Positions 4,575 to 38,064 of a stretch of DNA of 64,000 nucleotides are shown here, piece after piece. This DNA is from a virus. The notes below the pieces were generated by a model that was not told where the DNA came from, made no database searches, and was given only the letters and a program-made list of their open reading frames with translations. The DNA lies in the UHGV virus genome UHGV-0179428; one strand, written 5' to 3'. The number at the start of each line of letters is the position of its first letter. Positions within the stretch are counted from its first letter, which is position 1. A program made the position numbers and the translations under genes.

Positions 4575-7062
4575 TTTTTACTCCTTCGTTATACACCGCA
4601 GGCAATGTCACCCCTTCCGGTTCGATGACACAGTACGATGCTTCATTAAGTTTAGAATGAACCTCGGCTTCGTGGGAGACTACCAACAGTTGAGAAAATT
4701 CTCCCGAGTTTGCTAACGTTTTAATAAAGCCGACCAGGTTGTTACGGTGCTCCTCATCCATACCTTCCGAAGGCTCATCCAAAAGCAATGGAAACTGATG
4801 CAACTTCAGCGCTTTGTACGCGGTCAGCCTGAACATCAGATTAAATATCGCACGCTGCGCCTTAGACCCTTTACGCACGTCAGGAACAGGCTCAGGATGC
4901 GTTTTTAGCTGGACAGGAAAAGTATAATCCAAATCACCGTCAGTGAGATCGCAAGGCATGACGCGCATGGGGTACGTCCAGACCTGTTCGATATAACGCG
5001 TCATTAACTCTGTGATTCTAACGATAGCGTTGTAAAAATACTTTCTAAGCACACCCTTTTCTGGCGAGAAGGCTTGAATCATCAGTTTGTTATTGAACTG
5101 CTGGGCTTGCAAGTCAGCAAGTTCGCGTTCCAAACTGTTGAGCTGATTCAATTCATTTTCCATCTGACGATAACGTTCGCGTGCGGTTGTAAAAGCATCC
5201 AGCTTCCCTTCTCGTGCACGTAAGAGTTCCTCGACGACTGTATTTGTCAACGTAACCTTAACATCACTCTCTAACCGTTCGAATAACGCACTGAAATCAT
5301 CTACAGCACGTTTAACATTCACCAGATAGGTAAGTGTCGTGTTAGCCAGTTCGTGCTCTCTACGACGCATTGAGAGCATCTCTGTGGCTTTACCTAATCG
5401 CGACTGTTGGAAAGCGATTTTCTGTTGTAAAGCACCATCGACGTTACCAACGGCCGCTACGGCATCCTGCCATTCTTTTTCCGCTTTCACTAACCGTTGT
5501 CGGGTTTCATGGTACTCAATAGCAGAGTACAACTCACTGTCAAACGCTGCGCATAGGCTCCCGAACTGCTCGCGTGATTCTGTGAAAACGTTACGTTCTT
5601 GCAAACGCTTAAAGAACATGCTCAATACCGGGTCCTTTGAATACGTCAGTACAATCTCACGAACCTGTCGCATATAAGTTACATCGGATTCTAACTCAAC
5701 ACGATCGCGTAATAGGGCCTCTAACTGCGTTTGTAGTTCCGTGCGCTGCTGTTGTTGTCCGCGAATCGAAGACTCAAGTTCAGGTAAAGAACGTGTAACA
5801 CCAGGCCGAAACTTAAACCGACACTGCGGACAATCCACTTCTGCTGTTTCTAAGTAGTGATTACGCTCATGATTTAAATTCTGTAAAACGTTCTCCACTC
5901 GCTGGAGTCTATCCCGCAACCCTGCGGTTTTTTGATCCATCACCAGAAGCCGTTCTTCCAAAACATTGAGTTTTTCGGTTGAATGAATTGCGTCCAGTGT
6001 TGTTCCTAACCGTTGCCCCCAGACACGCGCATCGGTAGCCGCACGAAGTTGGTCTAAATTGACGTTGTCGTTAAATAGACCCGGAAAGAGATGCTCGGTG
6101 TCCCATTTGGTAAGTAACTCACGTAAACGTGCCAGCGTATTCTTGAGACCTTCGTGATTCCGCATCAGGTAGTCTTGTCGTGTCGACTCATCCATTAATA
6201 ACGACAAGTCTTTATTCAACATCGATACCTCTGTTTCAGTAGAAACAACAGCTTCGCGGGCGGTCGCTTCGTTTTGTCGCGCGACCAGTATCTGTTCATC
6301 AGTAGGCAATCCACCACGATGTTGTAATATTGCGTCGATGGTTGGACCCAAGCTGTTTAATAACGCTTGGATTGTTTCGATGGTGACGGCACGATTTAAT
6401 CCTGGCAACTGTTCGATTTCTCGGTTCAGTTCACGTAAATCCGATTCCAAACCTTTTAATCTCGTCGCTAACTGCTGCCGTTCTTCCTCGTTCTCAATAA
6501 CGCGCGTCCGTAATTCGGCGATCTTACGGCTGGTGATTTCAATACCCCCATTTAAAGCAGTAAGGTTTTTACGCAAACGTTGATAAAACCCTAACGCGTA
6601 AGTGAGGTCAGAGGTACTTAAACGGTAAAACCACTTGCGGCGTAGTTCGGTTCCCGCGTCAGTTAACAACACCTCACCATTTAATAGTTCTTTAATCTCT
6701 TTCGTAATACCCGTGATTTCTTCAACACGGGAGTTGTAGACTTTCGCATTACCTTGCTCGACGATCTTTGTCCCCGTGGTCAAGTTCTCAATATCACAAA
6801 CCAGTGAGTTGCCTTTACGGGCAACTTTGAATCGATAGCGTTGATCGCCAACTAAACAGTAGTTTGTGTAAGAACCTCCGTCCCTGAATTCGGTTTTAGC
6901 CGGTGCTAAGGGTAAGAACACAGACAGTAGACTGGTTTTCCCGCAGCCGTTCCCACCCAGGATAATTGTTGTCGGTGACTGGATAGTGAAATCGAAGGTT
7001 TCAATTTCATGTAACCCCATCCCCGTAAAACCTTTGAGTATAATGCGTTCAACTTTTAGCAT
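4558..7062 (-). CDS. SMC/Rad50/SbcC-like ATPase with coiled coil
   Basis: ORF track 4558-7278; preferred ATG at 7062 after GGAGGTG; N-terminal Walker A GGNGCGKTS, long central coiled-coil region with CPQC, C-terminal Walker B LLLDEP and VVSHE. Confidence 0.7.
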   Translation of the reverse strand: MLKVERIILKGFTGMGLHEIETFDFTIQSPTTIILGGNGCGKTSLLSVFLPLAPAKTEFRDGGSYTNYCLVGDQRYRFKVARKGNSLVCDIENLTTGTKIVEQGNAKVYNSRVEEITGITKEIKELLNGEVLLTDAGTELRRKWFYRLSTSDLTYALGFYQRLRKNLTALNGGIEITSRKIAELRTRVIENEEERQQLATRLKGLESDLRELNREIEQLPGLNRAVTIETIQALLNSLGPTIDAILQHRGGLPTDEQILVARQNEATAREAVVSTETEVSMLNKDLSLLMDESTRQDYLMRNHEGLKNTLARLRELLTKWDTEHLFPGLFNDNVNLDQLRAATDARVWGQRLGTTLDAIHSTEKLNVLEERLLVMDQKTAGLRDRLQRVENVLQNLNHERNHYLETAEVDCPQCRFKFRPGVTRSLPELESSIRGQQQQRTELQTQLEALLRDRVELESDVTYMRQVREIVLTYSKDPVLSMFFKRLQERNVFTESREQFGSLCAAFDSELYSAIEYHETRQRLVKAEKEWQDAVAAVGNVDGALQQKIAFQQSRLGKATEMLSMRRREHELANTTLTYLVNVKRAVDDFSALFERLESDVKVTLTNTVVEELLRAREGKLDAFTTARERYRQMENELNQLNSLERELADLQAQQFNNKLMIQAFSPEKGVLRKYFYNAIVRITELMTRYIEQVWTYPMRVMPCDLTDGDLDYTFPVQLKTHPEPVPDVRKGSKAQRAIFNLMFRLTAYKALKLHQFPLLLDEPSEGMDEEHRNNLVGFIKTLANSGEFSQLLVVSHEAEVHSKLNEASYCVIEPEGVTLPAVYNEGVKIVYAN

Positions 7063-7093
7063 ACCCACCTCCATAAAGACGGAGTGTGGTGTA

Positions 7094-7137
7094 AAAAGAA
7101 AAAAAAATAAAGAAAGGGAGAACCCGAAGGTTCTCCC
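7094..7137 (-). terminator. rho-independent terminator
   Basis: GGGAGAACC-cgaa-GGTTCTCCC hairpin followed on minus strand by a long T tract. Confidence 0.7.
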
Positions 7138-7142
7138 AAACG

Positions 7143-7751
7143 TTATTTGGTGTAGAGGTGATAACCCATTGAAGTCCAATAATCGACGTTCTTCGTGTTT
7201 TCTACCCAAACCTGTCCCGCCTTTGTGGCTAAGACTTCCATTGTCAATGTACAGATCAGATTTGTTACCGGGATACAATTTCCAGGTGTAACATCATCCA
7301 GATAAACCGGGTATAAAAACGGCGATTTAATGGATTGGTACGGGTAAGAATAGTGGCTACCGACCTTCCACCCTTCTTCTACAGGACAGAGATTAAAAGT
7401 GCGTGTTTCAGGAACTGCGTTTTCAGAGATCCAGTTAACAACATCGGCTTTAATTCGATCGTGGTCGATATAGTAGAACACAACACGTTGTGGGATACTT
7501 GTGGTACCAGCCGGGTCTAAAGCCTCCAACGCCTTAAAAGGCGACGTTAACAATGTTGTACTGTTCTCAAGCGCGTAAACCAACTTTTCGTAAGCAGTCG
7601 GTGTTTTACGTTTAAAATATTCCCGTAAGCGAGGGTATGCCAGGAATCCCTCTACTTCTTCTTCCATTAAGTCAATGAATAAAGGCGTATGCGAAAAACG
7701 CTCTGCATTTTGCATCGCTTCAAGAAAACGAACTAATGTAATTTCGTTCAT
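7143..7751 (-). CDS. hypothetical protein
   Basis: ORF track; AAGGAAAG RBS; flanked by terminator hairpins. Confidence 0.7.
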   Translation of the reverse strand: MNEITLVRFLEAMQNAERFSHTPLFIDLMEEEVEGFLAYPRLREYFKRKTPTAYEKLVYALENSTTLLTSPFKALEALDPAGTTSIPQRVVFYYIDHDRIKADVVNWISENAVPETRTFNLCPVEEGWKVGSHYSYPYQSIKSPFLYPVYLDDVTPGNCIPVTNLICTLTMEVLATKAGQVWVENTKNVDYWTSMGYHLYTK

Positions 7752-7771
7752 CTGGTCTTTCCTTTTAGATC

Positions 7772-7801
7772 AAAAAAAGAAGCCCCGAGTAAACGGGGCC
7801 G
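7772..7801 (-). terminator. rho-independent terminator
   Basis: GCCCCG-agtaaa-CGGGGC hairpin with T tract on minus strand. Confidence 0.55.
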
Positions 7802-7807
7802 GGCTAA

Positions 7808-8284
7808 TTACAGCCCTAAGTGCGTGAGTGATAAAATAGGTTGTGTTTCACCTTTAATCGTCGCGAAGGAACGATACATTTCTGCGTTACTTGAAAAAAC
7901 TTCGTTAGCAACGATACATTCACCCGTCTCTAAAGAAAGGAGATAAATGTAGTCGCTCCATACGCTTTGTACCAACACCCACTCAAGTGCGGTATCATTT
8001 TCGCGTGTTGTTCGCAGGTGGTGAAAGTAAGGACGGATTGCATCAACTGCCGCATTAAAACGACGGTGATAAATTCGGGTTAAATCAAAGGTCCAGATTG
8101 TTTCCAGGTCGACTGGATGTAGTGTGCGCACCGTTTCGATAATCGTCGACTGATCGTTAAGGCGCGAGGCTTCGGCGATACGTAGCAGTTTCCAGGCCAC
8201 CGTTAAGTTGTGGCGAATTTGTTCAGGTTTAGCCGACAGGTCATGATGAAATTGCGCAGCTTGGTAAACGTTAGATAATTGCAT
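7808..8284 (-). CDS. hypothetical protein
   Basis: ORF track; ACCTAAAGGAGTATTAAA-ATG context. Confidence 0.75.
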   Translation of the reverse strand: MQLSNVYQAAQFHHDLSAKPEQIRHNLTVAWKLLRIAEASRLNDQSTIIETVRTLHPVDLETIWTFDLTRIYHRRFNAAVDAIRPYFHHLRTTRENDTALEWVLVQSVWSDYIYLLSLETGECIVANEVFSSNAEMYRSFATIKGETQPILSLTHLGL

Positions 8285-8311
8285 TTTAATACTCCTTTAG
8301 GTAAACATGTC

Positions 8312-8340
8312 GTAAAAAGGACCCCGGACGTACCGGGGTC
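8312..8340 (-). terminator. rho-independent terminator
   Basis: GACCCCGG-acgta-CCGGGGTC hairpin then T-rich run on minus strand. Confidence 0.6.
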
Positions 8341-8350
8341 AAGACTACAC

Positions 8351-8740
8351 TCAATGATCTAATTCAATAGCACCAGCCATCTTGCCCCGTTCTTCGATAA
8401 CGATCAGATAACGGTCGCGAGATTTGCTTTTAGCGAGAGTTAAGACAACGGTAGGGTCGCACGTTTTCGTGGTGATAGGAAGAACCTCTCTTGCGACGGA
8501 ATCGAGCAGAAAGTAATAACCTGCGGGACACATTGTGCCACCGTCAGCTTTTACCAGAATATAGCGCCCGTCTGCGCCGACTTCTTGGCAGATTGTTTCA
8601 CCGACTTCGCAAACTTCAAACCCCGGAGGATTGTACTGATAATCGGTATTGTTGTTTGGGGTTAGCAGTAAATCGTTAACTTGGGTAGATGCTGCTACAC
8701 TCAGGGAGAAGAAGAATGCTAAAACGCAGACGAGACGCAT
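8351..8740 (-). CDS. secreted/periplasmic protein with signal peptide, hypothetical
   Basis: ORF track; N-terminal MRLVCVLAFFFSLSVAAST; AAGGAG RBS. Confidence 0.7.
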   Translation of the reverse strand: MRLVCVLAFFFSLSVAASTQVNDLLLTPNNNTDYQYNPPGFEVCEVGETICQEVGADGRYILVKADGGTMCPAGYYFLLDSVAREVLPITTKTCDPTVVLTLAKSKSRDRYLIVIEERGKMAGAIELDH

Positions 8741-8750
8741 GAGTTACTCC

Positions 8751-9161
8751 TTAAATTTTAAGTTTATCCATAGCTACAACGATAGGTTTTTCCGAAGTGT
8801 CTAATATCCCTACCATTGGCACACCATCTACGACTTCGAAGAATGGTTTGTTATTACCAGAGCACAGACGTTTGTCGTTGTATTCGAGACGCTGGGCCTT
8901 CCACGTTTCGAGGTTGAGTACGGACATTGGGCTGTCGTAGCACCAGGCACCACCCTGCTCAACGATGAATACGTATCTGCTACCTTTGTATTTAAACAGA
9001 CTCTTTGCCTGACAGTACAAGCCGTCGATTTCCGTACAATAGAAATCATCGGTGCTATTGACGTACTTAATATTGTCTGGCAACTGTATTGTTTTTGCTG
9101 TAGTGTTGACAGAGAATAGAACAGCCATTGCAATGAGGAGAGTATTAATGATAGTTTTCAT
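8751..9161 (-). CDS. secreted protein with signal peptide, hypothetical
   Basis: ORF track; N-terminal MKTIINTLLIAMAVLFSVNTTA; TAAGGA RBS. Confidence 0.7.
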   Translation of the reverse strand: MKTIINTLLIAMAVLFSVNTTAKTIQLPDNIKYVNSTDDFYCTEIDGLYCQAKSLFKYKGSRYVFIVEQGGAWCYDSPMSVLNLETWKAQRLEYNDKRLCSGNNKPFFEVVDGVPMVGILDTSEKPIVVAMDKLKI

Positions 9162-9172
9162 GATAAAAGTCC

Positions 9173-9658
9173 TTAGTATTTAGATTGTTCTACGTACTTC
9201 TTAACCAGGTAAGCGAATTCGGCAACACCGATATCACCGAACCAAATCAGATAACCGGGGTCGATGTTGTAGTAATAGCCGACGAGTTTCTTGGTGTGTG
9301 GGTTGTATAGCGTTACGATGTATTCCCAACCACAAGCGTTAGCTTTACAACCGCCACTTTCAATCCAGATTTTGTTGTTGATGTTTACCGGATACATGTT
9401 ACCGCCAGGGCCATCCATGTAACCTTTAGAGCCGAACATACCATCCAGCCCCACAGGGTCTAATGTTTTATCAACAACGGCTTTAAACGACTTATCGGTA
9501 TCGTACAAGTCGTTGATGTTTGGGCACGCATTTGGCTGACCTTCCCAAGCGTTTCCATCACAGGTAAGCAGTTCGTCTACGGAGGCCGCATCTACACTTG
9601 GTGTGGCACCGATAAACAAGAAAACCAGAAAGAACATCAGTGTGTGTAAACGTTTCAT
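9173..9658 (-). CDS. secreted protein with signal peptide, hypothetical
   Basis: ORF track; N-terminal MKRLHTLMFFLVFLFIGATPSVDA; AAAGGAG RBS. Confidence 0.7.
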   Translation of the reverse strand: MKRLHTLMFFLVFLFIGATPSVDAASVDELLTCDGNAWEGQPNACPNINDLYDTDKSFKAVVDKTLDPVGLDGMFGSKGYMDGPGGNMYPVNINNKIWIESGGCKANACGWEYIVTLYNPHTKKLVGYYYNIDPGYLIWFGDIGVAEFAYLVKKYVEQSKY

Positions 9659-22444: not shown

Positions 22445-22457
22445 GGAGAATTTTTTG

Positions 22458-26639: not shown

Positions 26640-26675
26640 GACAGACTGCCTGCGGGCAGTTGTGTGTCCGTAGGT

Positions 26676-26714
26676 AACCCCTCCCTGTAATGGGGAGGGG
26701 TATCCATTTTATTT
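26676..26714 (+). terminator. rho-independent terminator
   Basis: ACCCCTCCC-tgtaat-GGGGAGGGGT hairpin followed by T-rich tract. Confidence 0.6.
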
Positions 26715-26733
26715 AAAAGTAGGAGTCTTTACG

Positions 26734-29700: not shown

Positions 29701-31920
29701 AAAGATACGACTTATGGTTATCCTGGATACGGCGGGTTTGGACCAACATCCCGCCGTGTTGAAAAAAAAGCGAACGAATACGGCGTATTGACAAATATAC
29801 CGCTGGTTGTTACGCCAGACATACCGAAAGGTCTACTAGATGGGGCTTACTTTATCGGTGCTGAAAGTAAACCATGTAAAGTTGTTTACGGTACCACTAC
29901 GGTGGCTAGTGATCGGTTGTCTATCGATGCGGCAGAATGGGCGAAGTTGACTAATATTGTTCAGTCCAGCCAGTTCTCTGGGGCTTCTAACGGCAACGCC
30001 TATGAGCGGATTAGCGTAGCTAAGACCAAAAAGAACAACTACAGTTTGTCCTTTTGGGTGCTTGGTCAAACGATGTCTGGTGGTCCGCTTTGTATCGCGA
30101 TAGTGAGTCTTATCTATAAAGACACTGACGGGGTAAATAAGTTTGCTTTTTACTTCTTTCAGGTAAAACCGACTATAACCAACGGGGTCATAAGGTTCGT
30201 TAGTTCGGAAGCGAGAATGATGACGTTCAGGGAAAAAGTGGCCAGTAACGCCATTAATCTCTCACCCACAGCTTTTAATGGTGAACTTAAACAACGCTCC
30301 GGTCAAGTTTTCCTTTATTCGCAAGACGGACAAAAGTTCAGATTCTCAATACATAACCTGGTTGGCGGGAATCTTGTAGGATCAGAGATTTCTTTTGCTT
30401 TTGGGATAAACTTGACTAAAAAAGGAGAATGGTTTACCGGCGAAATTCATCGGGCGTGGGGCTATACGTATACGCTGAATAATACATCTGAAGTCTATAT
30501 ACCCGATCTCTCGGGCATCGCGCTATTGACTTGTAACTCGGAAGATTTAAACGAGTTGTATCTCGGTGGCGAACAGTATAGAATCTCTGATTTGTTTAAC
30601 AAAAAATATACTGTTATCGATAAGATTATTATTGGCGGCGTACAAACACAGAGCGGTTGGAATTTCTATCTGACGGAGGAAACCGAGTTAAGTTTTGGAA
30701 ATAAAAGATATACCGTTCCAAGATGGTCCGTTGATTTAAGCGATGAATTCCCGACTAATCACGCTAACCAGACATTCTACGTTTATGCTGAAGTGGTCGG
30801 TTCTACTGCCCAATACCGCATCGGTTTAGAGCAGTTAGCTGATACCTCGTCGAGACTGTTTGTTGGGACAGTAACCACTGATTCGAACCGTATTACGGAT
30901 ATCAGTATCGATAAAGTAAAACGGTTAGGTCGTGTAAAAGAGCTGGAAAATCATGCCTCGGTTGTTGATCAGCACGATGTGGCGCAGGCGTTCGACAGGA
31001 AAACTGGTCCACTATTAACAGTGGTTAATAAACCCGTTAAAGCCATTACAGCATCTGCGAGCAAGGGTGCTGGGTATGTCGATGGTCAGAAATGGAATAC
31101 GTTGTCCGGGATTGCAACGCGGCCCAGGTTGCCGGTACAGGAAACCTATTCAGGTTATAAAAGTATCAGCAGGGTGGCGTATGAGAACTGCGCTGACCAG
31201 TTCTGGCAGAAAGCGGTTGCTGCGAACGTTGCAGCGGCTACTGCTTCTGAGAACAAACAAGCAGCAACCGCGAACATGAAGTGGTTGGGTGCGTATACGA
31301 AACCGACTACCGGCGAGTATGCATATCTGGCATTGAGTCTGCGTGTTAAAGTACCTGGCGATCCTGGTACTACTAATCGTCGACTGAAAATCAGGCTTGC
31401 GGCCCCGACAGGTATAACTCAAGTTCGTTACGGGCTAAATCAGTCTGGCGGTACGATGACTGAACAGACAGTAACATTAACTGCTAACAGCTATCTGGAA
31501 AAAGAACACGCCGGATTTAAGCCAGCCGAAGAAGTCCGTGTACATGCTACGTTTGTCATTCCAAAAAATGAATACGATAGCTACCGTACGAAGTTCGGTG
31601 CTGTTCAGCTGATTGACGTTGAGTCGAACACTGTCATTAAACAGACAGATATCGACACACCGTTTATCGTGTATACCGACACGGAGTTAGCAGCACAATC
31701 TGGTTTGGTGTATAAAGCGGTTAAGGGTCAGTTCCATCAACTCCCGTCTCAACCTGTCGTCATTGTAACTGATGGACAGACAGGGACTACGCCACCGGTG
31801 AAAACCTCGTTTGCTGACGGGACATTAACGGTCTACGTGGCAACCACGTACGACGCGGTGAATCCAGCACAAACGCGCGATATCGATAAGCTCCAGTTCA
31901 ATCTTATGTTTACATCTTAA
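26734..31920 (+). CDS. giant tail fibre / receptor-binding-like protein 3 (1728 aa)
   Basis: ORF track; AGGAGTCTTTACG-ATG; N-terminal GPFYRIGL...GLDYYL module. Confidence 0.7.
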   Translation: MPREDAAQFNGTLSTVTYPNRFNVVIPPEGPFYRIGLKLTVADDTAPNGRRTLIEGLDYYLGYYFKELAEAEQDQIYGGFMLLTATEIEYEILGVARQYRVPQSEIGKFLVRTDLKDPRNVDWSELMAYAPVIQPIDPPANLEEAILRDEVVKALNDIRKKIIQRSTELDAAFTEVTNLIYENGKKIFDEELYQHHLNPNAHQYTTNDVGALPVLGRAVDATKAFGLTIDQLATLMGSAGIEQSDVEQLMGEALGTVYGRWGTTNGNELTFKTPGGHIISIRGDKWLITSPQPLVIKADQDNNESGLAVEFSAGLNTLWVHSGSEQDVLAPVYNSVYLVTPEMVNMYLTSVTLLEANAYFKSSDTVKPYGTAKQSNPLTLNANIPTATESVYGVFSITNIATSVALGTAISQKAVTELKNRLDLYVDDSYTVNGKGFVKTGDNMVLTLTKADFGIDKMNNTTPIAKPVTKALANVLKNKSLKVHTHTTADLDNVPIGSATVDGILQLWDAIDTTNDKAVTSRQGWLFAKEIKKVSDKLNTLLPAWTTAGSKYTNNSILPILSMGNYEGYGKNMDALQMVIGVQQGKLYALISSKSALPGTEGIYYAVAGLKNDKSLGEIYKTTFRYKPKGLETNYPGVELKEITVTGTEAFIAKGSDDNYYLVKLNGSMDYTKHTDVRLVTFSEFVSETTWEFVPNMFMDRVVIADNGVYVLRTMLMADLKNNSLVDYIKDTPQPMFRVGLLRLNKTDRFEQVDLSSTRKIGKCADLVEPGAFDVDNPNTKRLAYFTAEGKALWTVNLQLTRGVSRWITPVVKDGHLLTVGVSGVCLGFSSTKGTTFGPWNGAYRLDLLTGEVGLETTNIFPIKIDTTGCYLKDGTKIELKWKWATRSSGYMTDNRICVGDMVYSCCCSTEKQLAPSLHYQKLPEGVSYLDYVKLSAGYEGQSTFENRINPVVGSVWKPSMTFPLFFPGTNKVWLKHQKTAYFIEAEYDKDTTYGYPGYGGFGPTSRRVEKKANEYGVLTNIPLVVTPDIPKGLLDGAYFIGAESKPCKVVYGTTTVASDRLSIDAAEWAKLTNIVQSSQFSGASNGNAYERISVAKTKKNNYSLSFWVLGQTMSGGPLCIAIVSLIYKDTDGVNKFAFYFFQVKPTITNGVIRFVSSEARMMTFREKVASNAINLSPTAFNGELKQRSGQVFLYSQDGQKFRFSIHNLVGGNLVGSEISFAFGINLTKKGEWFTGEIHRAWGYTYTLNNTSEVYIPDLSGIALLTCNSEDLNELYLGGEQYRISDLFNKKYTVIDKIIIGGVQTQSGWNFYLTEETELSFGNKRYTVPRWSVDLSDEFPTNHANQTFYVYAEVVGSTAQYRIGLEQLADTSSRLFVGTVTTDSNRITDISIDKVKRLGRVKELENHASVVDQHDVAQAFDRKTGPLLTVVNKPVKAITASASKGAGYVDGQKWNTLSGIATRPRLPVQETYSGYKSISRVAYENCADQFWQKAVAANVAAATASENKQAATANMKWLGAYTKPTTGEYAYLALSLRVKVPGDPGTTNRRLKIRLAAPTGITQVRYGLNQSGGTMTEQTVTLTANSYLEKEHAGFKPAEEVRVHATFVIPKNEYDSYRTKFGAVQLIDVESNTVIKQTDIDTPFIVYTDTELAAQSGLVYKAVKGQFHQLPSQPVVIVTDGQTGTTPPVKTSFADGTLTVYVATTYDAVNPAQTRDIDKLQFNLMFTS

Positions 31921-31960
31921 CGCCACGAGACAAGGACGTCTCGGATTAAGGAGAGTGGCC

Positions 31961-33160
31961 ATGGCCTCCATTGTATACCAATACCCTTTAGATTTAACGG
32001 GAAGCCTAACCTCTAACGCCGTGGAGCGTCAGGTTACGTTAGGTACAGGTAAAGTTAACCGTGCGTTTGCTTTTCCTGATGGACCGTTTTATGCCGATAC
32101 GTTCCGCTTGCGGGTTGCCAACCGACCCGATGCGACGTATGAGCGCGGAACGGACTATGAGTTGATTTTTGCACATCCGGCTTACGAGAAATTGACGAAG
32201 AACCGGGAAGTGGTAATGGCGGTTGTTGTAACGAACACCGCCATTCCGACCGATATCACGGTATCGGCGCAAGTAGTCGGGGGTCCGCAGTCTGCAAACG
32301 TGACTGCGATAGAACAGGCGATTGCTGAGTTGAATCTCGATAATCGAACTGTCGGCTTTAAAGACTTGCGAAATGTTCCTGATACATTTCCGTCAGCACC
32401 AACGTATAAAGACGTCGGTGATATTTACGGTTTCGAATATATCATTACAGTGCTCGCTGGCATTAAAGATGCGATAACGGCGGGCGATGCTGTACAGCTT
32501 GAGAACATCAAAGCGATTCTCGAAAGCCTGAAAAACGATTTCCTGGACGCGCTGAACGCACACATTAACGCCACGGGTAACGTCCACCATCTGGATATTC
32601 ACCAGGTTAACGGGTTAACAGAAACGGAGATCCGTGCACTTATCCGTGATGTACAGTCTGCCATCGATGCAACCATTACCGATATTAATGCGTTGAAGAA
32701 AGCAGATGAAGCGTTAGGAAAACGTATTGATGCTGTTGTCAAATCTTTGGAAGCGTGGAACGACCAACTTAACATCGTTGCACAAAACTACCAGAAAATG
32801 GCATTGGCATTGGCGAACCTAAATTCGTTAGTGTTACAGTTACAGAAAAATATCAACGATCTGAACACCAAACTCAACCAAGCGATTCAGCGCATTGCTG
32901 CGTTAGAACAGCGGGGTAATGAGTCCGATCAGAAAATTGATAATCTGCAACAAAACCTGGATGCGCTTAAACAACAGGTTGCGAATAACACGAACGCAAT
33001 CAGTCAGGCGAATCAGAACCTACAAAACCATATTGCGGCAGATAACCCACACACGGGCTATCTCCACAAGAAATACGGTGGTGTGGTTCAGGCTCCAGTG
33101 CACGTTAACGCTAACTTGACGTCCCGTGATGACGTTCAGGCAGAAGCGGGTACGAAATAA
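31961..33160 (+). CDS. fibre-like protein 4 with coiled coil (399 aa)
   Basis: ORF track 31955-33160; ATG at 31961 after AAGGAGAG; N-terminal GPFYADTF...GTDYEL module; heptad-like Q/N/L-rich region. Confidence 0.7.
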   Translation: MASIVYQYPLDLTGSLTSNAVERQVTLGTGKVNRAFAFPDGPFYADTFRLRVANRPDATYERGTDYELIFAHPAYEKLTKNREVVMAVVVTNTAIPTDITVSAQVVGGPQSANVTAIEQAIAELNLDNRTVGFKDLRNVPDTFPSAPTYKDVGDIYGFEYIITVLAGIKDAITAGDAVQLENIKAILESLKNDFLDALNAHINATGNVHHLDIHQVNGLTETEIRALIRDVQSAIDATITDINALKKADEALGKRIDAVVKSLEAWNDQLNIVAQNYQKMALALANLNSLVLQLQKNINDLNTKLNQAIQRIAALEQRGNESDQKIDNLQQNLDALKQQVANNTNAISQANQNLQNHIAADNPHTGYLHKKYGGVVQAPVHVNANLTSRDDVQAEAGTK

Positions 33161-33227: not shown

Positions 33228-33623
33228 ATGGCGATCAGTGTTAAAAATGTACGTGACCGAATCACCAACGTAGAGAACCAAATGGCAACTGGCCCACGTG
33301 TTGATCCGCAAGTTGCGTCGAAAGCACATAATGCCGCCGACACTTTTTCGGGTTGGACGCCAAGTCGGTTAGACTGCGGGGGGAGTTGCAGCTGGACGTG
33401 CTCAAACGGTTGTACGCATGGCTGTACGAGTTGTTCGGGCACCTGTACGTCAGTGTGTGTAGGTAGCTGCTCCTCTGCGTGCGGTAACCAGTGTACTGGA
33501 TGTAGTTCAACGTGTTCCGGTGGCTGCTCAGGTTGCAGTGGGACCTGTGGGGGTGCTTGCTCGGGCCGTTGTTCTACGGGTTGTTCTGGTGCTTGCTCTG
33601 GTGGCTGTTCTGGCCCAACCTAA
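33228..33623 (+). CDS. Cys-rich (C-x3-C)n protein 1, candidate rSAM substrate / precursor
   Basis: ORF track 33225-33623; ATG at 33228 after AAGGA; about 60-aa N-terminal region then about 70 aa of C-x3-C repeats with S/G/T spacers starting at LDCGGSCSWTCS. Confidence 0.75.
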   Translation: MAISVKNVRDRITNVENQMATGPRVDPQVASKAHNAADTFSGWTPSRLDCGGSCSWTCSNGCTHGCTSCSGTCTSVCVGSCSSACGNQCTGCSSTCSGGCSGCSGTCGGACSGRCSTGCSGACSGGCSGPT

Positions 33624-34030
33624 GAGGTGAAAAATGGCAATTGGATTACCTGCGCTACAAGCGCGGCTAAATAACATTGACAACACTGCATTGAAGAATA
33701 CGGGTGCAGTACAAAACTATATTCGTGGGAAAGCGACGAACAACGCAGACTTATTCGGTGGGCAAGCTCGCAACCACTATGACTGTGGTGGGAGCTGTAG
33801 CTGGACCTGTTCGAGCTGTTCTGGTGGTTGTACAGGGAACGCATCAGGCGGCTGTGGTTCTTCCTGTTCTGCAAACTGTGTATCAGGTTGTAGTGCAGGC
33901 TGTAGTGGATGTTCGAATACCTGTTCTGGTGGCTGTTCAGGAAGCTGTACGGGGAGTTGTTCTAACTCGTGTGTAGGAAACTGTTCTGCAGGCTGCTCAG
34001 GTAGTTGTTCTGGTGGGTGTTCTGGGAGGT
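33390..34030 (+). repeat. low-complexity TGY/AGC/GGN codon repeats encoding (C-x3-C)n
   Basis: Visible periodic Cys codons every fourth codon across two adjacent genes. Confidence 0.7.
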
Positions 34031-34032
34031 AA
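33634..34032 (+). CDS. Cys-rich (C-x3-C)n protein 2, candidate rSAM substrate / precursor
   Basis: ORF track; AAGAGGTGAAAA-ATG; same architecture, core begins YDCGGSCSWTCSS. Confidence 0.75.
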   Translation: MAIGLPALQARLNNIDNTALKNTGAVQNYIRGKATNNADLFGGQARNHYDCGGSCSWTCSSCSGGCTGNASGGCGSSCSANCVSGCSAGCSGCSNTCSGGCSGSCTGSCSNSCVGNCSAGCSGSCSGGCSGR

Positions 34033-34034
34033 TT

Positions 34035-34241
34035 GTGATTAGCCTTAAGAACCTTCGTGATCGGTTAGTAACAGCGGAAGGGTATATTACGACCGCTAAC
34101 GCAAACAACTATATTGCAAACCAGGGCACTGTGTCTTCAACCAATAACCTTGCCGGTTTACCTTTAAGCCATTATAACTGTAACGGTGGATGTAGCTGGT
34201 CGTGCAGTGGTAGCTGTAGTAAAGGTGCGGGGGGAAGGTAA
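34035..34241 (+). CDS. Cys-rich protein 3 (short paralog), candidate rSAM substrate
   Basis: ORF track 34005-34241; GTG at 34035 after GGGAGG; VISLKNLRDR N-terminus parallels protein 1; core YNCNGGCSWSCSGSCS. Confidence 0.6.
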   Translation: MISLKNLRDRLVTAEGYITTANANNYIANQGTVSSTNNLAGLPLSHYNCNGGCSWSCSGSCSKGAGGR

Positions 34242-34390: not shown

Positions 34391-35278
34391 ATGAAGAATG
34401 ATTTACATTTAGCGTACAAAACAATTTTCAATCATCCACTTCACATTTCTTCCCCTGATTCCGTACGTGCACACTTAGCAGATGAAGTTCGTCTGCTGAC
34501 TCAGTTGCCGGGCGAATGGCCTAAAGTGCGCGGACGTTTCTTTACCGATCGTAAAAACTATCGTGTAGAAAATACGTTTAAGATTCGTGATCTGACGGCA
34601 GAAAGTGTAGTGGTCTTTACCGGTGACTCCGAGTTGCGTGGTAAACTGGTTGCGGGTAAATATTTCTTTAGTGACGGGATTTTGAATAACTCCGTAGATA
34701 TGGAATTGTTCTTTACCCCATTTGAAGAAATGGGCGCAAAACCGGTTGCCCGTCGTTGGTGGTCACCGGATTACTTAGGCTCGTTCCCGTATTTCTTTAC
34801 CCTGGTAACACCAGAAACGAAGAACTATTTCGATACGGAATCGTATATCGAAATTGAAGGGTACGAAGCGTTAGGGATTAATTGCTTAGCGGATTTAATG
34901 GCGTATAGCTATAAGTTCGTGTGGGATCGTGAACGTTCCGTGTGGGTTGCCCTGACGGATGAACACGAAATCACAAAACGCATCCGTAAGCCTTGGATGC
35001 AGCATTTGATTCAAACGCGTATTGGCGAGCATCCGTCAACAGAAGCGGATCTGGCAAAACTCGTTAGTTTCTTAATGACGAAAGTCACGTTAACTGACGA
35101 AGAGAAAGCAGCAGTGTCGGCGGTGTTGGACCGTAACGTAACGTTAGCGGATTTAGAACGTTTAAATGTCCGTTATAAAGACCTTAACCGTGTTTTGGAA
35201 GCGTATAACTCTCCATTTTTGTTAACCCCTGGTGCTAACGTAGACGACGATCCTTTGTTCGCCATTGATTATATTTAA
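34391..35278 (+). CDS. hypothetical protein in rSAM cluster
   Basis: ORF track 34379-35278; ATG at 34391 after GGAG. Confidence 0.7.
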   Translation: MKNDLHLAYKTIFNHPLHISSPDSVRAHLADEVRLLTQLPGEWPKVRGRFFTDRKNYRVENTFKIRDLTAESVVVFTGDSELRGKLVAGKYFFSDGILNNSVDMELFFTPFEEMGAKPVARRWWSPDYLGSFPYFFTLVTPETKNYFDTESYIEIEGYEALGINCLADLMAYSYKFVWDRERSVWVALTDEHEITKRIRKPWMQHLIQTRIGEHPSTEADLAKLVSFLMTKVTLTDEEKAAVSAVLDRNVTLADLERLNVRYKDLNRVLEAYNSPFLLTPGANVDDDPLFAIDYI

Positions 35279-35299: not shown

Positions 35300-36223
35300 A
35301 TGACAACCAATGCAGAACCAAGGTTATCGAATCGTTTATACGATAAACCCACCGTATTGTCCGTAGTCGCTACGTCCAAGTGTAACCTGGATTGTAGCTT
35401 CTGCGGTGGAGCCTATTACATGAATCGTGAAGATTCTCCGCGAGAGTTTCAACGTGAGCGAATTTTGGAAGCGCTGGAAGCTAATCCAACCATTACCGAA
35501 ATTCAGTGGACGGGTGGTGAGCCATTACTGGCAACCCGTAAAATTGAGGCGTTTGTTGACGAATTAAAAGTGATTCGTCCAGAACTCAAACACCAGTTGT
35601 ATACCAATGGCTTAAAGATGCGTAAATCGCATCTCCCGTTGCTAAAACAGTTTGACAATGTCTACGTTAGCATCGATGGGTTTAAGTCGTCTGAGCGCCC
35701 GTTTATGCGCTTTATTGACGAAGGCTGTTACGAAGCACTGGAAACGATCTACGAGCTGGATAATGTCCAGACTTGGGGTGTCCTGACACGGGACCGTTTA
35801 GGGGACAAACGCTGGCACGAAGATATTATTCAGCTGCACAGCGCGATTTACCATTACGGTTTCCGTGCAATGACGTTACTCTTAGATGCGAAAATGCCAA
35901 AACCTTTATCGCCTGACCACGTCATGAACTTTATTTACGGCTACTATCAGGTTCAGGACAACATTGAACGGCTGAATGTAGTAAATAGTCGTGAATGCGG
36001 CTTTACGGTAAGTAAAGTGTTTGAAGAAGGGTGTAACGTTTGCAGCGAAAGTCTTTGGATTAATGCAGACGGTGGTGAGCACCAACTCCAGAATGCACCT
36101 AACGTTCTGGAATCGGGATGTAACCAACTGGCCTTCTCTATCGGTGTAGAGGCGTACGAATATATTCGTCGTGTGGTGATGGCAGGGCGTAATAGAGGGG
36201 CGGCAAATGAGTCAAGTAAATGA
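35300..36223 (+). CDS. radical SAM enzyme 1
   Basis: ORF track; CNLDCSFC (C-x3-C-x2-C) near N-terminus, GGEPLL SAM-binding motif, additional C-terminal Cys cluster. Confidence 0.8.
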   Translation: MTTNAEPRLSNRLYDKPTVLSVVATSKCNLDCSFCGGAYYMNREDSPREFQRERILEALEANPTITEIQWTGGEPLLATRKIEAFVDELKVIRPELKHQLYTNGLKMRKSHLPLLKQFDNVYVSIDGFKSSERPFMRFIDEGCYEALETIYELDNVQTWGVLTRDRLGDKRWHEDIIQLHSAIYHYGFRAMTLLLDAKMPKPLSPDHVMNFIYGYYQVQDNIERLNVVNSRECGFTVSKVFEEGCNVCSESLWINADGGEHQLQNAPNVLESGCNQLAFSIGVEAYEYIRRVVMAGRNRGAANESSK

Positions 36224-37529
36224 ATTCCCTAAGCAGTTAACGTATCAGATCGTAACCAACCTTTCGTGTAACCTGGACTGCGAATATTGTTACGAACGTA
36301 AGTACCCGCGTAACAACAAAGCGGCTGACATTGTTGATTTCTTACACGCCTGTTTTGAACGTGATAAAAACGAACCGAATGTTGAAGTTATTATCGACAT
36401 TATCGGTGGTGAACCGTTCATGCAGCCTAAACTGCTGTTGGCTGCGTTTGAAACCGCTGAGCAGTTGTGTAAAGAACACAACCGACCGTTTATGTTTAGT
36501 ATCTCCACGAACGGAACGCTGTTAGATCGTCCGTTGAACCGTGAGATTGTAGAACGTTGGAAAGATAAACTTTCGGTTGGGGTTTCGATTGATGGCTTAC
36601 CTGAATCCCATGACCGTTATCGTATCTTCACAACAACACGCCAGGGTTCTTACGAAGCCGCAGTACGTGGCTATAACTACTTAAAAGAGGTTGGCATTGC
36701 AGAGCTCGGCGTAAAAGCAACCTTTACGTTAGAAACGCTGCCGTTCTATGCTGCGGGGATGAAGTCATTAATTGACATTACTGGCGGTGGGACAATTTCT
36801 GGAAACGTAACTTTCGAAGACGTTATGCCACGTAGCATGGCGACGTCAATCGCTTTACAGATGATGGATGTGATAGATTACTGGGTTGAGAAAGGATTAC
36901 ACACCAACCCACGTAATATCCTATCGCATATCATTCCAGAAGGGTTGGATTTCGACACGATTTGGGAACCGAACTGGCGTGACCAGTTACTGTATAATGA
37001 CACCGTACGGTTGAACCCGGAACGCTTACGTCCGTTCTGTGGGACGTTAACGCACATGACGTGCTTAGGGTTTGACCGTAAGATCTTTGGCTGTAACCGC
37101 TTTATGTCAACGGTAACGTCGCGTTCTGCGGTGTTTGAGTTGGTAGGTCGGGAATTCGTCAGTCTGGACAACGGTAAATTGTTAGAAGAGATTCAAACGC
37201 AATATACCAACTACCCAGAGACCTGTTTAGGTTGTCCGATGAAACACGCTTGTGGTAGCTGCGCAGCGGCTTCTTACGAGAACGGGGAAGGAACGTTAGA
37301 AGACCGTAAAGCGTATCACGCTGAACGACGTCAGTGTGGCTGGACGACAGCGAAACTGATGGTGGCGGAATACTGGAAACAGAAGATGGGTACGACGTCA
37401 GCAAAAGCGTTCCACGACACGAGTATGTGTTATTGCCCACGCTGTGTTCGTGAACGTGCCCAAAAGGAAAAATTATTAAGAGAAGCCAAAGATGAAACCA
37501 ATTCTGATCAACAATATTACGAAGCGTAG
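36207..37529 (+). CDS. radical SAM enzyme 2 with SPASM-like C-terminal Cys-rich domain
   Basis: ORF track; CNLDCEYC, GGEPF, C-terminal CLGCPMKHACGSC plus further Cys including CYCPRC; 17-nt overlap with upstream rSAM gene. Confidence 0.8.
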   Translation: MSQVNEFPKQLTYQIVTNLSCNLDCEYCYERKYPRNNKAADIVDFLHACFERDKNEPNVEVIIDIIGGEPFMQPKLLLAAFETAEQLCKEHNRPFMFSISTNGTLLDRPLNREIVERWKDKLSVGVSIDGLPESHDRYRIFTTTRQGSYEAAVRGYNYLKEVGIAELGVKATFTLETLPFYAAGMKSLIDITGGGTISGNVTFEDVMPRSMATSIALQMMDVIDYWVEKGLHTNPRNILSHIIPEGLDFDTIWEPNWRDQLLYNDTVRLNPERLRPFCGTLTHMTCLGFDRKIFGCNRFMSTVTSRSAVFELVGREFVSLDNGKLLEEIQTQYTNYPETCLGCPMKHACGSCAAASYENGEGTLEDRKAYHAERRQCGWTTAKLMVAEYWKQKMGTTSAKAFHDTSMCYCPRCVRERAQKEKLLREAKDETNSDQQYYEA

Positions 37530-38064
37530 AATTCGACTTCTGGATAAGTTTCTGGAAAACAGTAAGCTATTTGGTTGTTATGTGGTGATTAACGGTGAAG
37601 ATTTTACCGATGACGTAAAACGCTTGCTGATTCGTCACGGTGTGACTGTAATCATCCCAATGTACTGCACCGAACTTACTGACCTGTCGGTCGCGGAAAT
37701 TGAAAAACGTAACCCAGGGTTTGAAGAACGGGTATTGGATTTCCCACGTCACAAAATTGCGTTTCTACGCCGCTCTTTAAGCGAACCCAGCGCAGAATCT
37801 ATCACTGTGTTGGCATTGTCCTTCCCCGGCATTACTATCTTCGCAACACGTAACCCGAACTCACCGATTGATGGGTTTTACGATGAGCGGGAGAAATTTA
37901 ATACCGTGATTTTTCCTGAGCTAACGCCAGAAGAATGCCAGGGTATCCGTATCGATTGGGAATCGGACTTCGACACAAGATTCCGTCATATCGATTTTGA
38001 ACTGTTAATCGAATTAGGGTTGATTAAAGGAGACGATGAATGTCTGCTACTGGTGAAGGCTTAA
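37492..38064 (+). CDS. hypothetical protein in rSAM cluster
   Basis: ORF track; overlaps 3' end of rSAM 2. Confidence 0.6.
   Translation: MKPILINNITKRRIRLLDKFLENSKLFGCYVVINGEDFTDDVKRLLIRHGVTVIIPMYCTELTDLSVAEIEKRNPGFEERVLDFPRHKIAFLRRSLSEPSAESITVLALSFPGITIFATRNPNSPIDGFYDEREKFNTVIFPELTPEECQGIRIDWESDFDTRFRHIDFELLIELGLIKGDDECLLLVKA

Follow-up and report, generated by a model that had tools for sequence, protein, structure and literature searches.

What two radical-SAM enzymes could contribute to a phage that encodes them among its structural genes is the question raised by the locus described here. The window, i.e., the whole 64-kb stretch of DNA that was analyzed, originates from an SPN3US-like jumbo phage and contains two such genes, here called rSAM-A and rSAM-B (Table 1). 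Genes for Fe-S enzymes in tail-fiber modules were called "highly unusual" in one paper, which offered no explanation for them (PMC12390700). The genes found within about 15 kb on each side of the pair are virion or tail genes, lysis genes or genes of unknown function.

The first-pass annotation had described two adjacent, overlapping radical-SAM genes, and this description was borne out. The two reading frames share 17 nt (36207-36223), contain the cluster motifs C28-N-L-D-C32-S-F-C35 (CNLDCSFC, rSAM-A) and C21-N-L-D-C25-E-Y-C28 (CNLDCEYC, rSAM-B), and are the only long ORFs in the window with a CX3CX2C pattern. In a Pfam scan, both proteins exceeded the gathering score of PF04055 (Radical_SAM, 29.5 bits), with 53 bits (E = 6e-14) for rSAM-A and 57 bits (E = 3.4e-15) for rSAM-B, as well as the gathering score of PF13353 (Fer4_12). 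Family alignments of both proteins showed the Cys residues of the cluster motif to be invariant, and the same applies to the SAM-binding GGE motif (G72-G73-E74 in rSAM-A, G67-G68-E69 in rSAM-B). Radical-SAM membership of both proteins is far beyond chance.

Table 1. Features of the co-directional gene block around the radical-SAM gene pair (positions refer to the window).
Feature	Coordinates	Strand	Description
Fiber-like virion structural protein	31955..33160	+	ortholog of SPN3US gp167; coiled coil, no Cys; phrog_2163 8e-103
Cys-rich protein 1	33228..33623	+	131 aa from ATG 33228 (ORF listing: GTG 33225); 21 Cys; phrog_6085 1.6e-40
Cys-rich protein 2	33634..34032	+	132 aa; 20 Cys; phrog_6085 4.7e-38
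Cys-rich protein 3	34035..34241	+	68 aa from GTG 34035; SD GGGAGG; phrog_6085 2.5e-24
p8030 protein	34391..35278	+	295 aa from ATG 34391; phrog_8030; ortholog of SPN3US gp165
rSAM-A	35300..36223	+	ATG; 307 aa; ortholog of SPN3US gp164
rSAM-B	36207..37529	+	ATG; 440 aa; ortholog of SPN3US gp163
p7988 protein	37492..38064	+	190 aa; ortholog of SPN3US gp162; phrog_7988 1.8e-55
DUF4376 protein	38040..38711	+	223 aa; ortholog of SPN3US gp161; PF14301 5e-11; phrog_8169 3.9e-89

The CNLDCx(F/Y)C motif alone is not diagnostic of an enzyme class. The best NCBIfam matches of rSAM-B were PapB (NF047865) with 116.8 bits and the CXXX-repeat-target maturase TIGR04115 with 114.7 bits, both below the curated cut-offs of 340 and 350 bits, respectively; the alignment to TIGR04115 covered profile positions 3-345 of 359. 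Further family scores were 75.3 bits for HxsB, 61 for QhpD (TIGR03906) and 59 for anSME, and in the PDB the best sequence match was CteB (5.8e-14), with anSME in second place. At 24-28% identity, sequence comparison places rSAM-B in a divergent sister clade of TIGR04115. An alignment of 22 diverse homologs revealed seven invariant C-terminal Cys (C286, C296, C340-x2-C343-x5-C349-x2-C352 and C377) and one near-invariant Cys (C278). This pattern corresponds to the seven-Cys SPASM motif used here (C-x9-15-G-x4-C ... C-x2-C-x5-C-x3-C ... C, two auxiliary clusters), except that the last spacing is x2 and not x3. An extra CxCxxC (C408/410/413) is restricted to the jumbo-phage clade. Since the Pfam SPASM model reported no match for rSAM-A or rSAM-B, the SPASM assignment of rSAM-B rests on this Cys pattern and on the full-length alignment to SPASM families. 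Both proteins lack an N-terminal RRE, for which there is no room because the radical-SAM motif already begins at residue 21 in rSAM-B and at residue 28 in rSAM-A.

The AlphaFold2 model of rSAM-A (pLDDT 87.4) consists of a radical-SAM core followed by a short C-terminal beta-hairpin/helix domain. A Foldseek search with this model returned CteB (5wgg) as best match (E = 2.5e-11), then SuiB and anSME, with the epimerase EpeE and viperins also among the fold matches. In the C-terminal domain, invariance was seen for C248 and C274 and near-invariance for C245 (or the adjacent position); C233 and C143 are not conserved. Thus, rSAM-A has three conserved C-terminal Cys and not the seven of the SPASM motif, which would be compatible with an abridged SPASM or a twitch-like single-cluster domain. 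Aligned by hhalign, rSAM-A matched the small radical-SAM protein of a Campylobacter prophage over its full length with 98.6% probability, and by this comparison the two are orthologs; the match to phrog_626 was weak (E = 1.7e-4). The earlier assignment of both enzymes to peptide or protein maturases with SPASM or twitch domains, and not to the NrdG or QueE types, is supported by the profile and structure matches of both enzymes. As to the checks it proposed, the nearest profile families are indeed maturases, but the curated cut-off of every named family was missed, and the auxiliary-cluster Cys agree with a SPASM-type pattern in rSAM-B but not in rSAM-A.

These data also bear on the possibility that one or both enzymes are glycyl-radical activases or act on nucleosides or cofactors, as NrdG, QueE, MoaA or viperin-like proteins do. 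Apart from the viperins among the fold matches, rSAM-A showed weak matches to MoaA (43.8 bits, cut-off 284), viperin (39, cut-off 180), QueE (35.5, cut-off 260) and NrdG2 (34, cut-off 131), but all of them lie far under the cut-offs and span only the generic N-terminal radical-SAM core. In agreement with the first-pass annotation, no glycyl-radical, ribonucleotide reductase or queuosine partner gene was seen within ~15 kb on either side; the genes that are conserved together with rSAM-A encode CXXX-repeat proteins, p8030 and rSAM-B. On account of the low scores and the gene context, a role as an activase or as an enzyme of the QueE, MoaA or viperin type was rejected as extremely improbable, and it is supported that both enzymes are peptide- or protein-modifying maturases.

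Candidate substrates are located close by. Three ORFs with CXXX repeats or a CSW motif are found 1-2 kb upstream on the same strand, all of which are omitted or mis-framed in public annotation; likewise, the annotation of SPN3US does not contain substrate genes. All 21 Cys of Cys-rich protein 1 and all 20 Cys of Cys-rich protein 2 are kept in every ortholog compared, and a codon comparison of Cys-rich protein 1 with its ortholog from locus L022 yielded 61 synonymous and 11 non-synonymous differences. Given the full conservation of Cys and the large excess of synonymous over non-synonymous changes, these ORFs are considered to be real genes. In Cys-rich protein 1, CXXX/CXX repeats come after an N-terminal part of ~50 aa that contains a fiber-type junction motif (A-x-N-A-x-x-F-x-G...CGGSCSWTC). 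The same architecture is found in Cys-rich protein 2, whose gene is preceded by a strong Shine-Dalgarno sequence (AAGAGGTG). Cys-rich protein 3 is a minimal version with the junction motif CNGGCSWSCSGSC only, and 68-aa orthologs of it occur in loci L002, L008 and L022. The profile TIGR04114 scored 20.4 bits on Cys-rich protein 2 (cut-off 20), with no single stretch passing, and gave no match to Cys-rich proteins 1 and 3 at E values up to 0.01. A direct count of Cys spacings across the clade returned 639 of period 4 and 110 of period 3. The repeat unit can be written as C-[ST]-G-x, with Ser or Thr at the first position after Cys in 75-93% and Gly at the second in 55-72% of the units; Cys is the invariant feature, and at none of the repeat positions is Asp a frequent residue in the clade. 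Cys-rich proteins 1-3 are probably the substrates of the radical-SAM pair, as judged from sequence and gene neighborhood. Substrates that are free-standing, 68-132 aa long and equipped with an N-terminal part of ~50 aa also fit the layout of a leader-core RiPP precursor.

That the Cys-rich neighbors are substrates, as the first-pass annotation had suggested, is strongly supported by their co-occurrence with relatives of rSAM-B. Such relatives are found in at least 438 viral loci, and among the best 80 of these, 78 have a CXXX-repeat reading frame within 3 kb. If only ORFs with a start codon are counted, a CXXX ORF is present in 72 of the best 80 loci, in all cases within 3 kb and in 71 on the same strand. 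As a background, only one such ORF was present in 390 kb of flanking sequence at distances above 5 kb. The pairing of the two enzymes, raised earlier as a possibility from the gene overlap, is likewise supported: the pair co-occurs in unrelated phages in either gene order and is fused to one 686-aa protein in locus L034, in which the C-terminal Cys motif of rSAM-A is lost. An assignment of rSAM-A to a target through a correlation between the CSW motif and the small radical-SAM protein was dropped, as loci L005, L030 and L034 have the latter without the former.

It might also be argued that the CXXX domain is a structural module that binds metals or is held by disulfides, with no need for radical chemistry, and that the enzymes have a different target, for example another tail protein, a cofactor or a nucleoside. 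Cys ladders are able to bind metals, and contacts between fiber and baseplate of the cyanophage Pam3 are stabilized by disulfides (PMC9942802). However, the co-occurrence of CXXX ORFs with the rSAM-B lineage is near-universal, tightly local and extends across unrelated phages, the curated pair TIGR04114/TIGR04115 embodies the same link between target and enzyme, and the conserved partners of the pair, namely the CXXX proteins and p8030, include no other candidate for a substrate gene. This explanation is regarded as very unlikely.

The relatives also connect the substrates to tail fibers. Elsewhere, in phages of the P2-like, lambda-like and other types, the repeat is found at the C-terminal end of a recognizable tail-fiber protein, which is followed by a p8030-like protein and then by the enzyme pair. 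For instance, the PF12571 tail-fiber protein of a Campylobacter P2-like prophage ends in GCNGCSGSCSGSCSSGC and is followed by a 250-aa protein and two radical-SAM proteins, the module standing between baseplate and sheath genes. In a lambda-like prophage of Deferribacter, a fiber protein encoded downstream of GpJ has ...ATNADQLGGQAGSYYRCSDCSWTCSSSC(TGxC)n as its C-terminal end, and the same trio ensues. The CXXX-bearing proteins of loci L034, L027, L025 and L035 match tail-fiber PHROGs with E values down to 2e-40, while a Pfam scan of ten CXXX-bearing fiber proteins gave no matches. Bona fide TIGR04115-type viral loci that were sampled adjoin baseplate and tail-fiber genes as well; one distant viral relative (L041) scored 416 bits against TIGR04115. 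The small Cys-rich proteins of the window resemble the fibers, which measure 250-600 aa, by the junction motif only (A-x-N-A-x-x-L-G-G...Y-x-C-x-G-[ST]-C-S-W-[ST]-C, common to the small proteins and the full-length tail fibers). It is proposed that the small proteins are a split-off equivalent of the Cys-rich C-terminal domain of other phages' tail-fiber proteins and that, for this reason, the whole block may be viewed as a tail-fiber maturation module.

This module would comprise, in order, fiber-like proteins, Cys-rich proteins, p8030, rSAM-A, rSAM-B, p7988 and the DUF4376 protein. The fiber-like gene upstream of the Cys-rich ORFs is the last of four co-directional paralogs (18122-33160) with a common N-terminal phrog_2163 domain. 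The SPN3US proteins gp167, gp168 and gp169 are abundant and fall in the class "Tail" according to mass spectrometry of virions (PMC7411985, Table S2), and gp168 has been called a tail fiber protein. For gp164, gp165 and gp162, purified virions yielded 0 PSM in the same data, as opposed to 2-7 PSM in crude tail or prohead preparations, and no entry for gp163, the rSAM-B ortholog, was found in the protein table searched (PMC7411985, Table S2). The p7988 ORF overlaps rSAM-B by 38 nt; p7988 was found in 18 loci, all of them SPN3US-like, and is confined to the jumbo-phage clade. The DUF4376 gene, which ends the co-directional block, has weak tail-fiber PHROG matches (phrog_1807, tail fiber, 2.4e-4). 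The co-directional and tightly packed or overlapping arrangement of the genes suggests co-expression with the tail genes. The conserved third component, p8030, is predicted to be a fold orphan, and no similarity to known fiber-assembly chaperones was detected for it, in fold or in sequence. Its family is linked to the Campylobacter 250-aa protein transitively, by jackhmmer via intermediates and by the conserved gene position, the direct hhalign probability being only 44%. The p8030 gene always lies between substrate and enzyme genes and the protein is not in virions; since rSAM-B has no RRE domain, p8030 may present or chaperone the substrate, or it might act as an assembly factor.

An alternative that has to be weighed here is that each small protein consists of leader and core and gives rise to a released RiPP (for instance a toxin, an anti-defense factor or a signaling peptide), with the tail neighborhood being incidental. 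The enzymes do fall in the neighborhood of RiPP maturases, the two-part layout of ~50 N-terminal and 80 Cys-rich aa is precursor-like, and locus L033 has a minimal 97-aa substrate away from any tail genes. Nevertheless, the N-terminal part carries the fiber-type motif and no recognizable leader, the Pfam scan detected no protease or exporter (transporter) among the proteins of the cluster, and the would-be core is elsewhere fused, together with the junction motif, to the end of full-length tail-fiber proteins with strong PHROG matches. In addition, the module resides inside the tail modules of P2-like, lambda-like and jumbo phages. A released product is considered improbable. We regard it as highly likely that the gene block is a maturation module for CXXX proteins tied to tail fibers and, with somewhat less confidence, as probable that the partnered radical-SAM maturases act on the three upstream CXXX-repeat proteins within it.

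As for the reaction, thioether formation is put forward tentatively, by analogy with related enzymes. The conserved Cys would provide rSAM-B with a SAM-cleaving [4Fe-4S] cluster and two auxiliary clusters, and rSAM-A with a SAM cluster and perhaps one auxiliary cluster. In analogy with CteB, PapB, SkfB and QhpD, the 5'-deoxyadenosyl radical would take a hydrogen atom from a residue of the repeat, the best candidates being Ser/Thr at position +1 or Gly at position +2 of the C-[ST]-G-x unit, and the resulting radical would be captured by a Cys thiolate. At most ~20 thioethers per chain would generate a ladder of small rings and thus a rigid, reduction-resistant fiber domain, and the matured Cys-rich proteins would then join the gp167-type fiber. 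An Asp acceptor of the PapB type does not occur in the repeats. The same substrates could instead undergo another chemistry, namely oxidation of Cys or Ser to formylglycine as by anSME, epimerization as by EpeE or PoyD, C-C cross-linking, or one reaction per enzyme. Several observations agree with this option: the structure search with rSAM-A also retrieved anSME and EpeE, the PDB sequence search with rSAM-B ranked anSME second, the presence of two enzymes suggests two reactions, and all family scores are too low for a reaction to be transferred. Moreover, the eight conserved SPASM-region Cys of rSAM-B resemble the fully ligated auxiliary clusters of anSME-type enzymes, which have eight Cys in this region. 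On the other hand, the best-scoring relatives of both enzymes are the thioether formers PapB, CteB and SkfB, and Cys is invariant in the substrate, as would be expected if the thiol were the reacting group. A different chemistry is rated as unlikely, albeit less so than the alternatives discussed above.

Going beyond this locus, it is conceivable, if still speculative, that a Cys-x-x-x ladder forms part of the tail fiber or of the receptor-binding tip in many tailed phages, ranging from prophages of 30 kb to jumbo phages of 240 kb, and that dedicated radical-SAM enzymes staple it into a poly-thioether rod ahead of assembly. A search of the available literature on tail fibers or receptor-binding proteins in combination with radical-SAM enzymes or maturases, SPN3US included, found no description of such a system, nor of peptide-antibiotic-type chemistry being applied to a structural part of a virus. 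If this is true, RiPP-type radical chemistry would for the first time be seen to make a virion structural component, and radical-SAM cross-linking, whose known products are mainly peptide natural products along with a few enzymes, would reach virus architecture. A new covalently stapled fold at the host-recognition end of phages would bear on fiber stability, host range and phage engineering, and there would be a reason for the iron-sulfur enzymes in the tail-fiber modules of many phages, including the unexplained radical-SAM genes in structural clusters of jumbo phages. As SPN3US is a genetic model phage, the idea is directly testable there.

Several known systems share features with the proposed module. 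HxsB/HxsC (TIGR03978/TIGR03977) likewise combine a SPASM-type and a small radical-SAM protein next to a short-period repeat protein. However, the repeat is His-Xaa-Ser and not Cys-x-x-x, no tail-fiber context is known, the scores are low (75.3 bits for rSAM-B against HxsB, cut-off 370; 39-49 bits for the small radical-SAM proteins against HxsC, cut-off 268, with 38.9 bits for rSAM-A), and the ORF listing of the window contains no His-Xaa-Ser repeat ORF. The ranthipeptide maturase PapB of the freyrasin system, the best NCBIfam match of rSAM-B, aligns without an N-terminal RRE offset and is described in one report as introducing several thioethers into a single substrate, at a Cys-containing motif that recurs there (PMC10739248). 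Unlike what is proposed here, PapB works as a single enzyme on PapA, a small RiPP precursor and not a virion protein, and it joins Cys to Asp, which is essentially missing from the window-type repeats, so that a Cys-x3-Asp acceptor pattern is not found. CteB, the SCIFF maturase (TIGR03974; 5wgg), likewise belongs to the SPASM enzymes and forms thioethers in a Cys-rich peptide, but its N-terminal RRE of ~85-100 aa is missing from both phage enzymes: profile positions 105-267 align to residues 19-181 (59.5 bits, cut-off 425). The SCIFF peptide itself has 45 aa and six Cys. QhpD and anSME are precedents of SPASM radical-SAM enzymes that modify a functional protein subunit and not a released peptide. 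Both QhpD/QhpC, which serve the maturation of quinohemoprotein amine dehydrogenase, and the sulfatase maturase anSME nevertheless differ from the phage enzymes in scores far below the cut-offs, unrelated substrates and the lack of a known virus association.

Among fiber-assembly systems, chaperones of the P2 gpG type are non-virion helpers encoded right after the fiber gene, a position that is held by p8030 in the P2-like prophage; yet known chaperones only fold their clients, without radical enzymes. Small-residue-rich distal fiber domains are known from the glycine-rich-motif adhesin gp38 of T4/S16 and from Pam3 gp24 (PMC9942802 for Pam3 and S16), whose Gly-rich motifs are, however, not Cys ladders. 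A likeness also exists to TIGR04115/TIGR04114, in which a SPASM-type radical-SAM enzyme is encoded beside a protein in which every fourth residue is Cys. This family is a database prediction only, with no stated link to phage tails, and no paper on the CXXX-repeat/TIGR04115 family was found in the literature search. If the reading is true, the locus described here supplies a concrete substrate and a biological context for it and a role for a long-orphaned family of radical-SAM enzymes. From that family the phage clade differs by the addition of a second, small radical-SAM protein and of p8030, and by substrates that carry the fiber-type junction motif with its CSW element.

Two adjacent radical-SAM genes had been claimed for positions 35300-37529 by the first-pass annotation, and both reading frames were found there, overlapping by 17 nt. 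Their products, a smaller protein (rSAM-A) and a larger, SPASM-type protein (rSAM-B), both score above the Pfam gathering thresholds for Radical_SAM and Fer4_12, which confirms their identity as radical-SAM enzymes. They are the only long ORFs of the 64 kb with a CX3CX2C motif and, with 25% identity across the N-terminal 150 residues, are distant kin. The DNA of the region is ~72% identical to Salmonella phage SPN3US and its relatives (Seoulvirus, phiKZ-like jumbo phages), with SPN3US gp163 and gp164 as the orthologues of rSAM-B and rSAM-A, respectively; an identical rSAM-B protein is encoded in a 225-kb IMG/VR contig. The pair sits inside a long co-directional gene block. Four fibre-like paralogues, the counterpart of SPN3US gp170-gp167, are followed by three small Cys-rich ORFs, a phrog_8030 protein (p8030; gp165), rSAM-A, rSAM-B, the gp162 orthologue p7988 and a DUF4376 protein (gp161), the spacing from p8030 on being one 21-nt gap and then overlaps of 17, 38, and 25 nt. 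SPN3US gp167-169 are abundant 'Tail' proteins, with gp168 termed a tail fibre protein. The absence of a nearby NrdG- or queuosine-type partner, also stated earlier, held as well, in that ribonucleotide reductase, queuosine, and glycyl-radical genes were not found among the neighbours; activase or small-molecule roles of the two enzymes are regarded as extremely improbable.

Coordinates of the features discussed (positions in the window unless a locus is named)
Feature	Position	Strand	Remarks
Four consecutive paralogous fibre-like virion proteins	18122-33160	+	1440/1394/1728/401 aa; common N-terminal phrog_2163 domain
Cys-rich 1	33228..33623	+	phrog_6085; 21 Cys
Cys-rich 2	33634..34032	+	phrog_6085; 20 Cys
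Cys-rich 3	34035..34241	+	phrog_6085; junction motif only
rSAM-A	35300..36223	+	307 aa; cluster motif C28-NLD-C32-SF-C35
rSAM-B	36207..37529	+	440 aa; cluster motif C21-NLD-C25-EY-C28
rSAM-B residues 408-413	37428..37445		extra C-x-C-x-x-C
Three tandem paralogues	38791..40528	-	175-179 aa; phrog_4862
Endolysin-like genes around tail assembly chaperone gene	41267..43132	-	phrog_894 and phrog_315 either side of phrog_1158
SPN3US (L001, NC_027402) Cys-rich genes	4950..5342, 5353..5757, 5773..5979		missed or mis-framed in public record
SPN3US gp166/ACQ60_gp100 (L001)	5426..5761		out-of-frame call
L002 Cys-rich region	5050..5769		genes missed or mis-framed in public record
L034 fused rSAM gene	7131..9188		686 aa
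L033 minimal putative substrate	6883..7176		97 aa

Directly 3′ of the module lie three tandem paralogues with weaker matches to 'virion structural protein' PHROGs, each with the C-terminus ...L(D/E)GFT, and the endolysin-like pair with the tail assembly chaperone gene is found a few kb downstream of the rSAM module.

The top NCBIfam matches of rSAM-B were PapB (116.8 bits, cut-off 340) and TIGR04115 (114.7 bits, cut-off 350), both well below the cut-offs; the alignment to TIGR04115, titled 'radical SAM peptide maturase, CXXX-repeat target family', spans profile positions 3-345 of 359. A sequence search of the PDB returned the thioether-forming CteB (5wgg) first and anSME second. Across 22 diverse homologues, invariance extends to all three cluster Cys and to C286, C296, C340, C343, C349, C352, and C377 of the C-terminal part; C278 is nearly invariant. 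Such a pattern is of the SPASM type, for two auxiliary clusters, although the Pfam SPASM model itself was not reported. Since the cluster motif begins at residue 21, rSAM-B has no N-terminal RRE. In the jumbo-phage clade the protein additionally carries a C-terminal C-x-C-x-x-C and a charged tail; this extra motif is not present in prophage or TIGR04115-type relatives and may bind a further metal or serve in docking.

For rSAM-A, NCBIfam matches were confined to the N-terminal core, reached at most 48 bits and involved many families. Assignments as NrdG2 (34 bits vs 131) and QueE (35.5 bits vs 260) were excluded. Beyond the core, only C248 and C274 are invariant in the family alignment, with C245 nearly invariant. 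In the AF2 model (pLDDT 87.4), a short beta-hairpin and helices come after the core barrel, and the best fold matches of this model were CteB, SuiB, and anSME, with viperins and the epimerase EpeE ranking lower.

The Cys-rich ORFs, the putative substrates, have good ribosome-binding sites and share one architecture, in which an N-terminal part of ~50 aa leads into a junction conserved as …A-x-N-A-x-x-F-G-G…Y-D-C-G-G-S-C-S-W-T-C, after which come C-[ST]-G-x repeats. In CXXX repeats of this kind, Cys is the one invariant position, +1 being Ser/Thr in 75-93% and +2 Gly in 55-72% of units. The match of Cys-rich 2 to TIGR04114 (CXXX repeat target) was marginal (20.4, cut-off 20). Codon differences to a relative of the 93% clade comprised 61 synonymous and 11 non-synonymous ones, and every Cys was kept in all comparisons; the ORFs are thus subject to purifying selection. 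That the Cys are merely structural, as metal ligands or in disulfides, while the enzymes act elsewhere, is very unlikely. In public annotation these genes are missed or mis-framed: SPN3US gp166/ACQ60_gp100 lies on top of Cys-rich 2, and in the record of Erwinia phage pEa_SNUABM_29 opposite-strand ORFs are annotated over Cys-rich 1 and 2. Therefore, the proteins have never been among the databases searched in proteomics.

Confirmed rSAM-B relatives are present in 438 viral stretches; the association of enzyme and CXXX repeats is tight and widespread. Among the best 80 of these loci, 78 contain a CXXX-repeat reading frame and 72 a start-codon-defined CXXX ORF, all ≤3 kb from the enzyme gene and 71 on the same strand; the flanks >5 kb from the enzyme, 390 kb in total, contain a single such ORF. 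Gene maps revealed a recurrent module of a fibre-CXXX gene, a p8030-like gene, and two rSAM genes in varying order, a few loci having a single rSAM gene. At one locus (L034), on a 284-kb jumbo-phage contig, a single fused protein combines the small rSAM with the SPASM rSAM, and its small-rSAM half is without the C-terminal CxxC...GC motif. Among the more remote loci (24-28% identity) are bona fide TIGR04115 members (416 bits), which, where checked, adjoin baseplate and tail-fibre genes. In cultured phages, only SPN3US-like ones (hosts Salmonella, Escherichia, Erwinia, Cronobacter, and Proteus) belong to the close clade. The minimal putative substrate, encoded at L033, has the C-terminus ...GCESCAMGCHGPQ; a p8030-like gene and two rSAM genes lie directly downstream, and the neighbour is a large helicase-like gene, not tail genes.

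Both 'bacterial' homologues traced (n = 2) are prophage genes. The P2-like tail module of Campylobacter pinnipediorum comprises baseplate J, Tail_P2_I, a PF12571 fibre with the C-terminal end GCNGCSGSCSGSCSSGCTACSGCSGSC…, a 250-aa protein, a SPASM rSAM, a small rSAM, and the sheath; with hhalign (98.6%), the entire small rSAM, C-terminal Cys motif included, could be aligned to the rSAM-A family. In Deferribacter abyssi, a fibre protein downstream of a lambda GpJ-like protein has His-x-His-type fibre repeats and the C-terminus …ATNADQLGGQAGSYYRCSDCSWTCSSSC(TGxC)n, and is followed by a 250-aa protein, a small rSAM, and a SPASM rSAM. N-terminal regions of CXXX proteins at other loci match tail-fibre PHROGs (best E 2e-40). 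The CXXX domain is thus a C-terminal domain of tail fibres in several phage types, and a released RiPP as product seems unlikely. In some fibres (L005, L025, L027, L030, and L034), the N-A-x-x-L-G-G…C-S-W motif ahead of the repeats gives way to another type of junction, …F-[DN]-G-[ST]-G-D-x-x-[IL]-x-x-G-C-x-x-(x)-C…, which shows no clean correlation with the presence of the small rSAM.

Gene order and coupling, enzyme class, and conservation of the cluster-binding Cys are established by these data. In the proposed mechanism, the rSAM pair would modify the Cys ladder, and p8030 may present the substrate to the enzymes, since an RRE is absent. Thioether formation on the ladder is the most likely chemistry, because the nearest characterised relatives PapB, CteB, SkfB, and QhpD all form Cys thioethers (for PapB, PMC10739248) and because Cys is the sole invariant repeat residue; a different chemistry on the same substrate is conceivable, if rather less probable.

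Searches for 'CXXX repeat', TIGR04115, and radical-SAM tail-fibre maturation found no paper in the searchable literature, which covers few subscription journals. Radical-SAM genes in structural clusters of jumbo phages are mentioned merely as a curiosity, with eight unexplained genes reported within the structural/tail-fibre cluster of Aeromonas giant phage 332-Vera and six, likewise unexplained, in Pseudomonas phage pPa_SNUABM_DT01 (PMC12390700; PMC8541153). These sets may be expanded versions of a similar module. The pairing of a SPASM maturase with a Cys-repeat target is already known in the form of curated, uncharacterised NCBIfam models, to which the module described here would add a second rSAM as partner, p8030 with its orphan fold, and a putative substrate in virion tail fibres.
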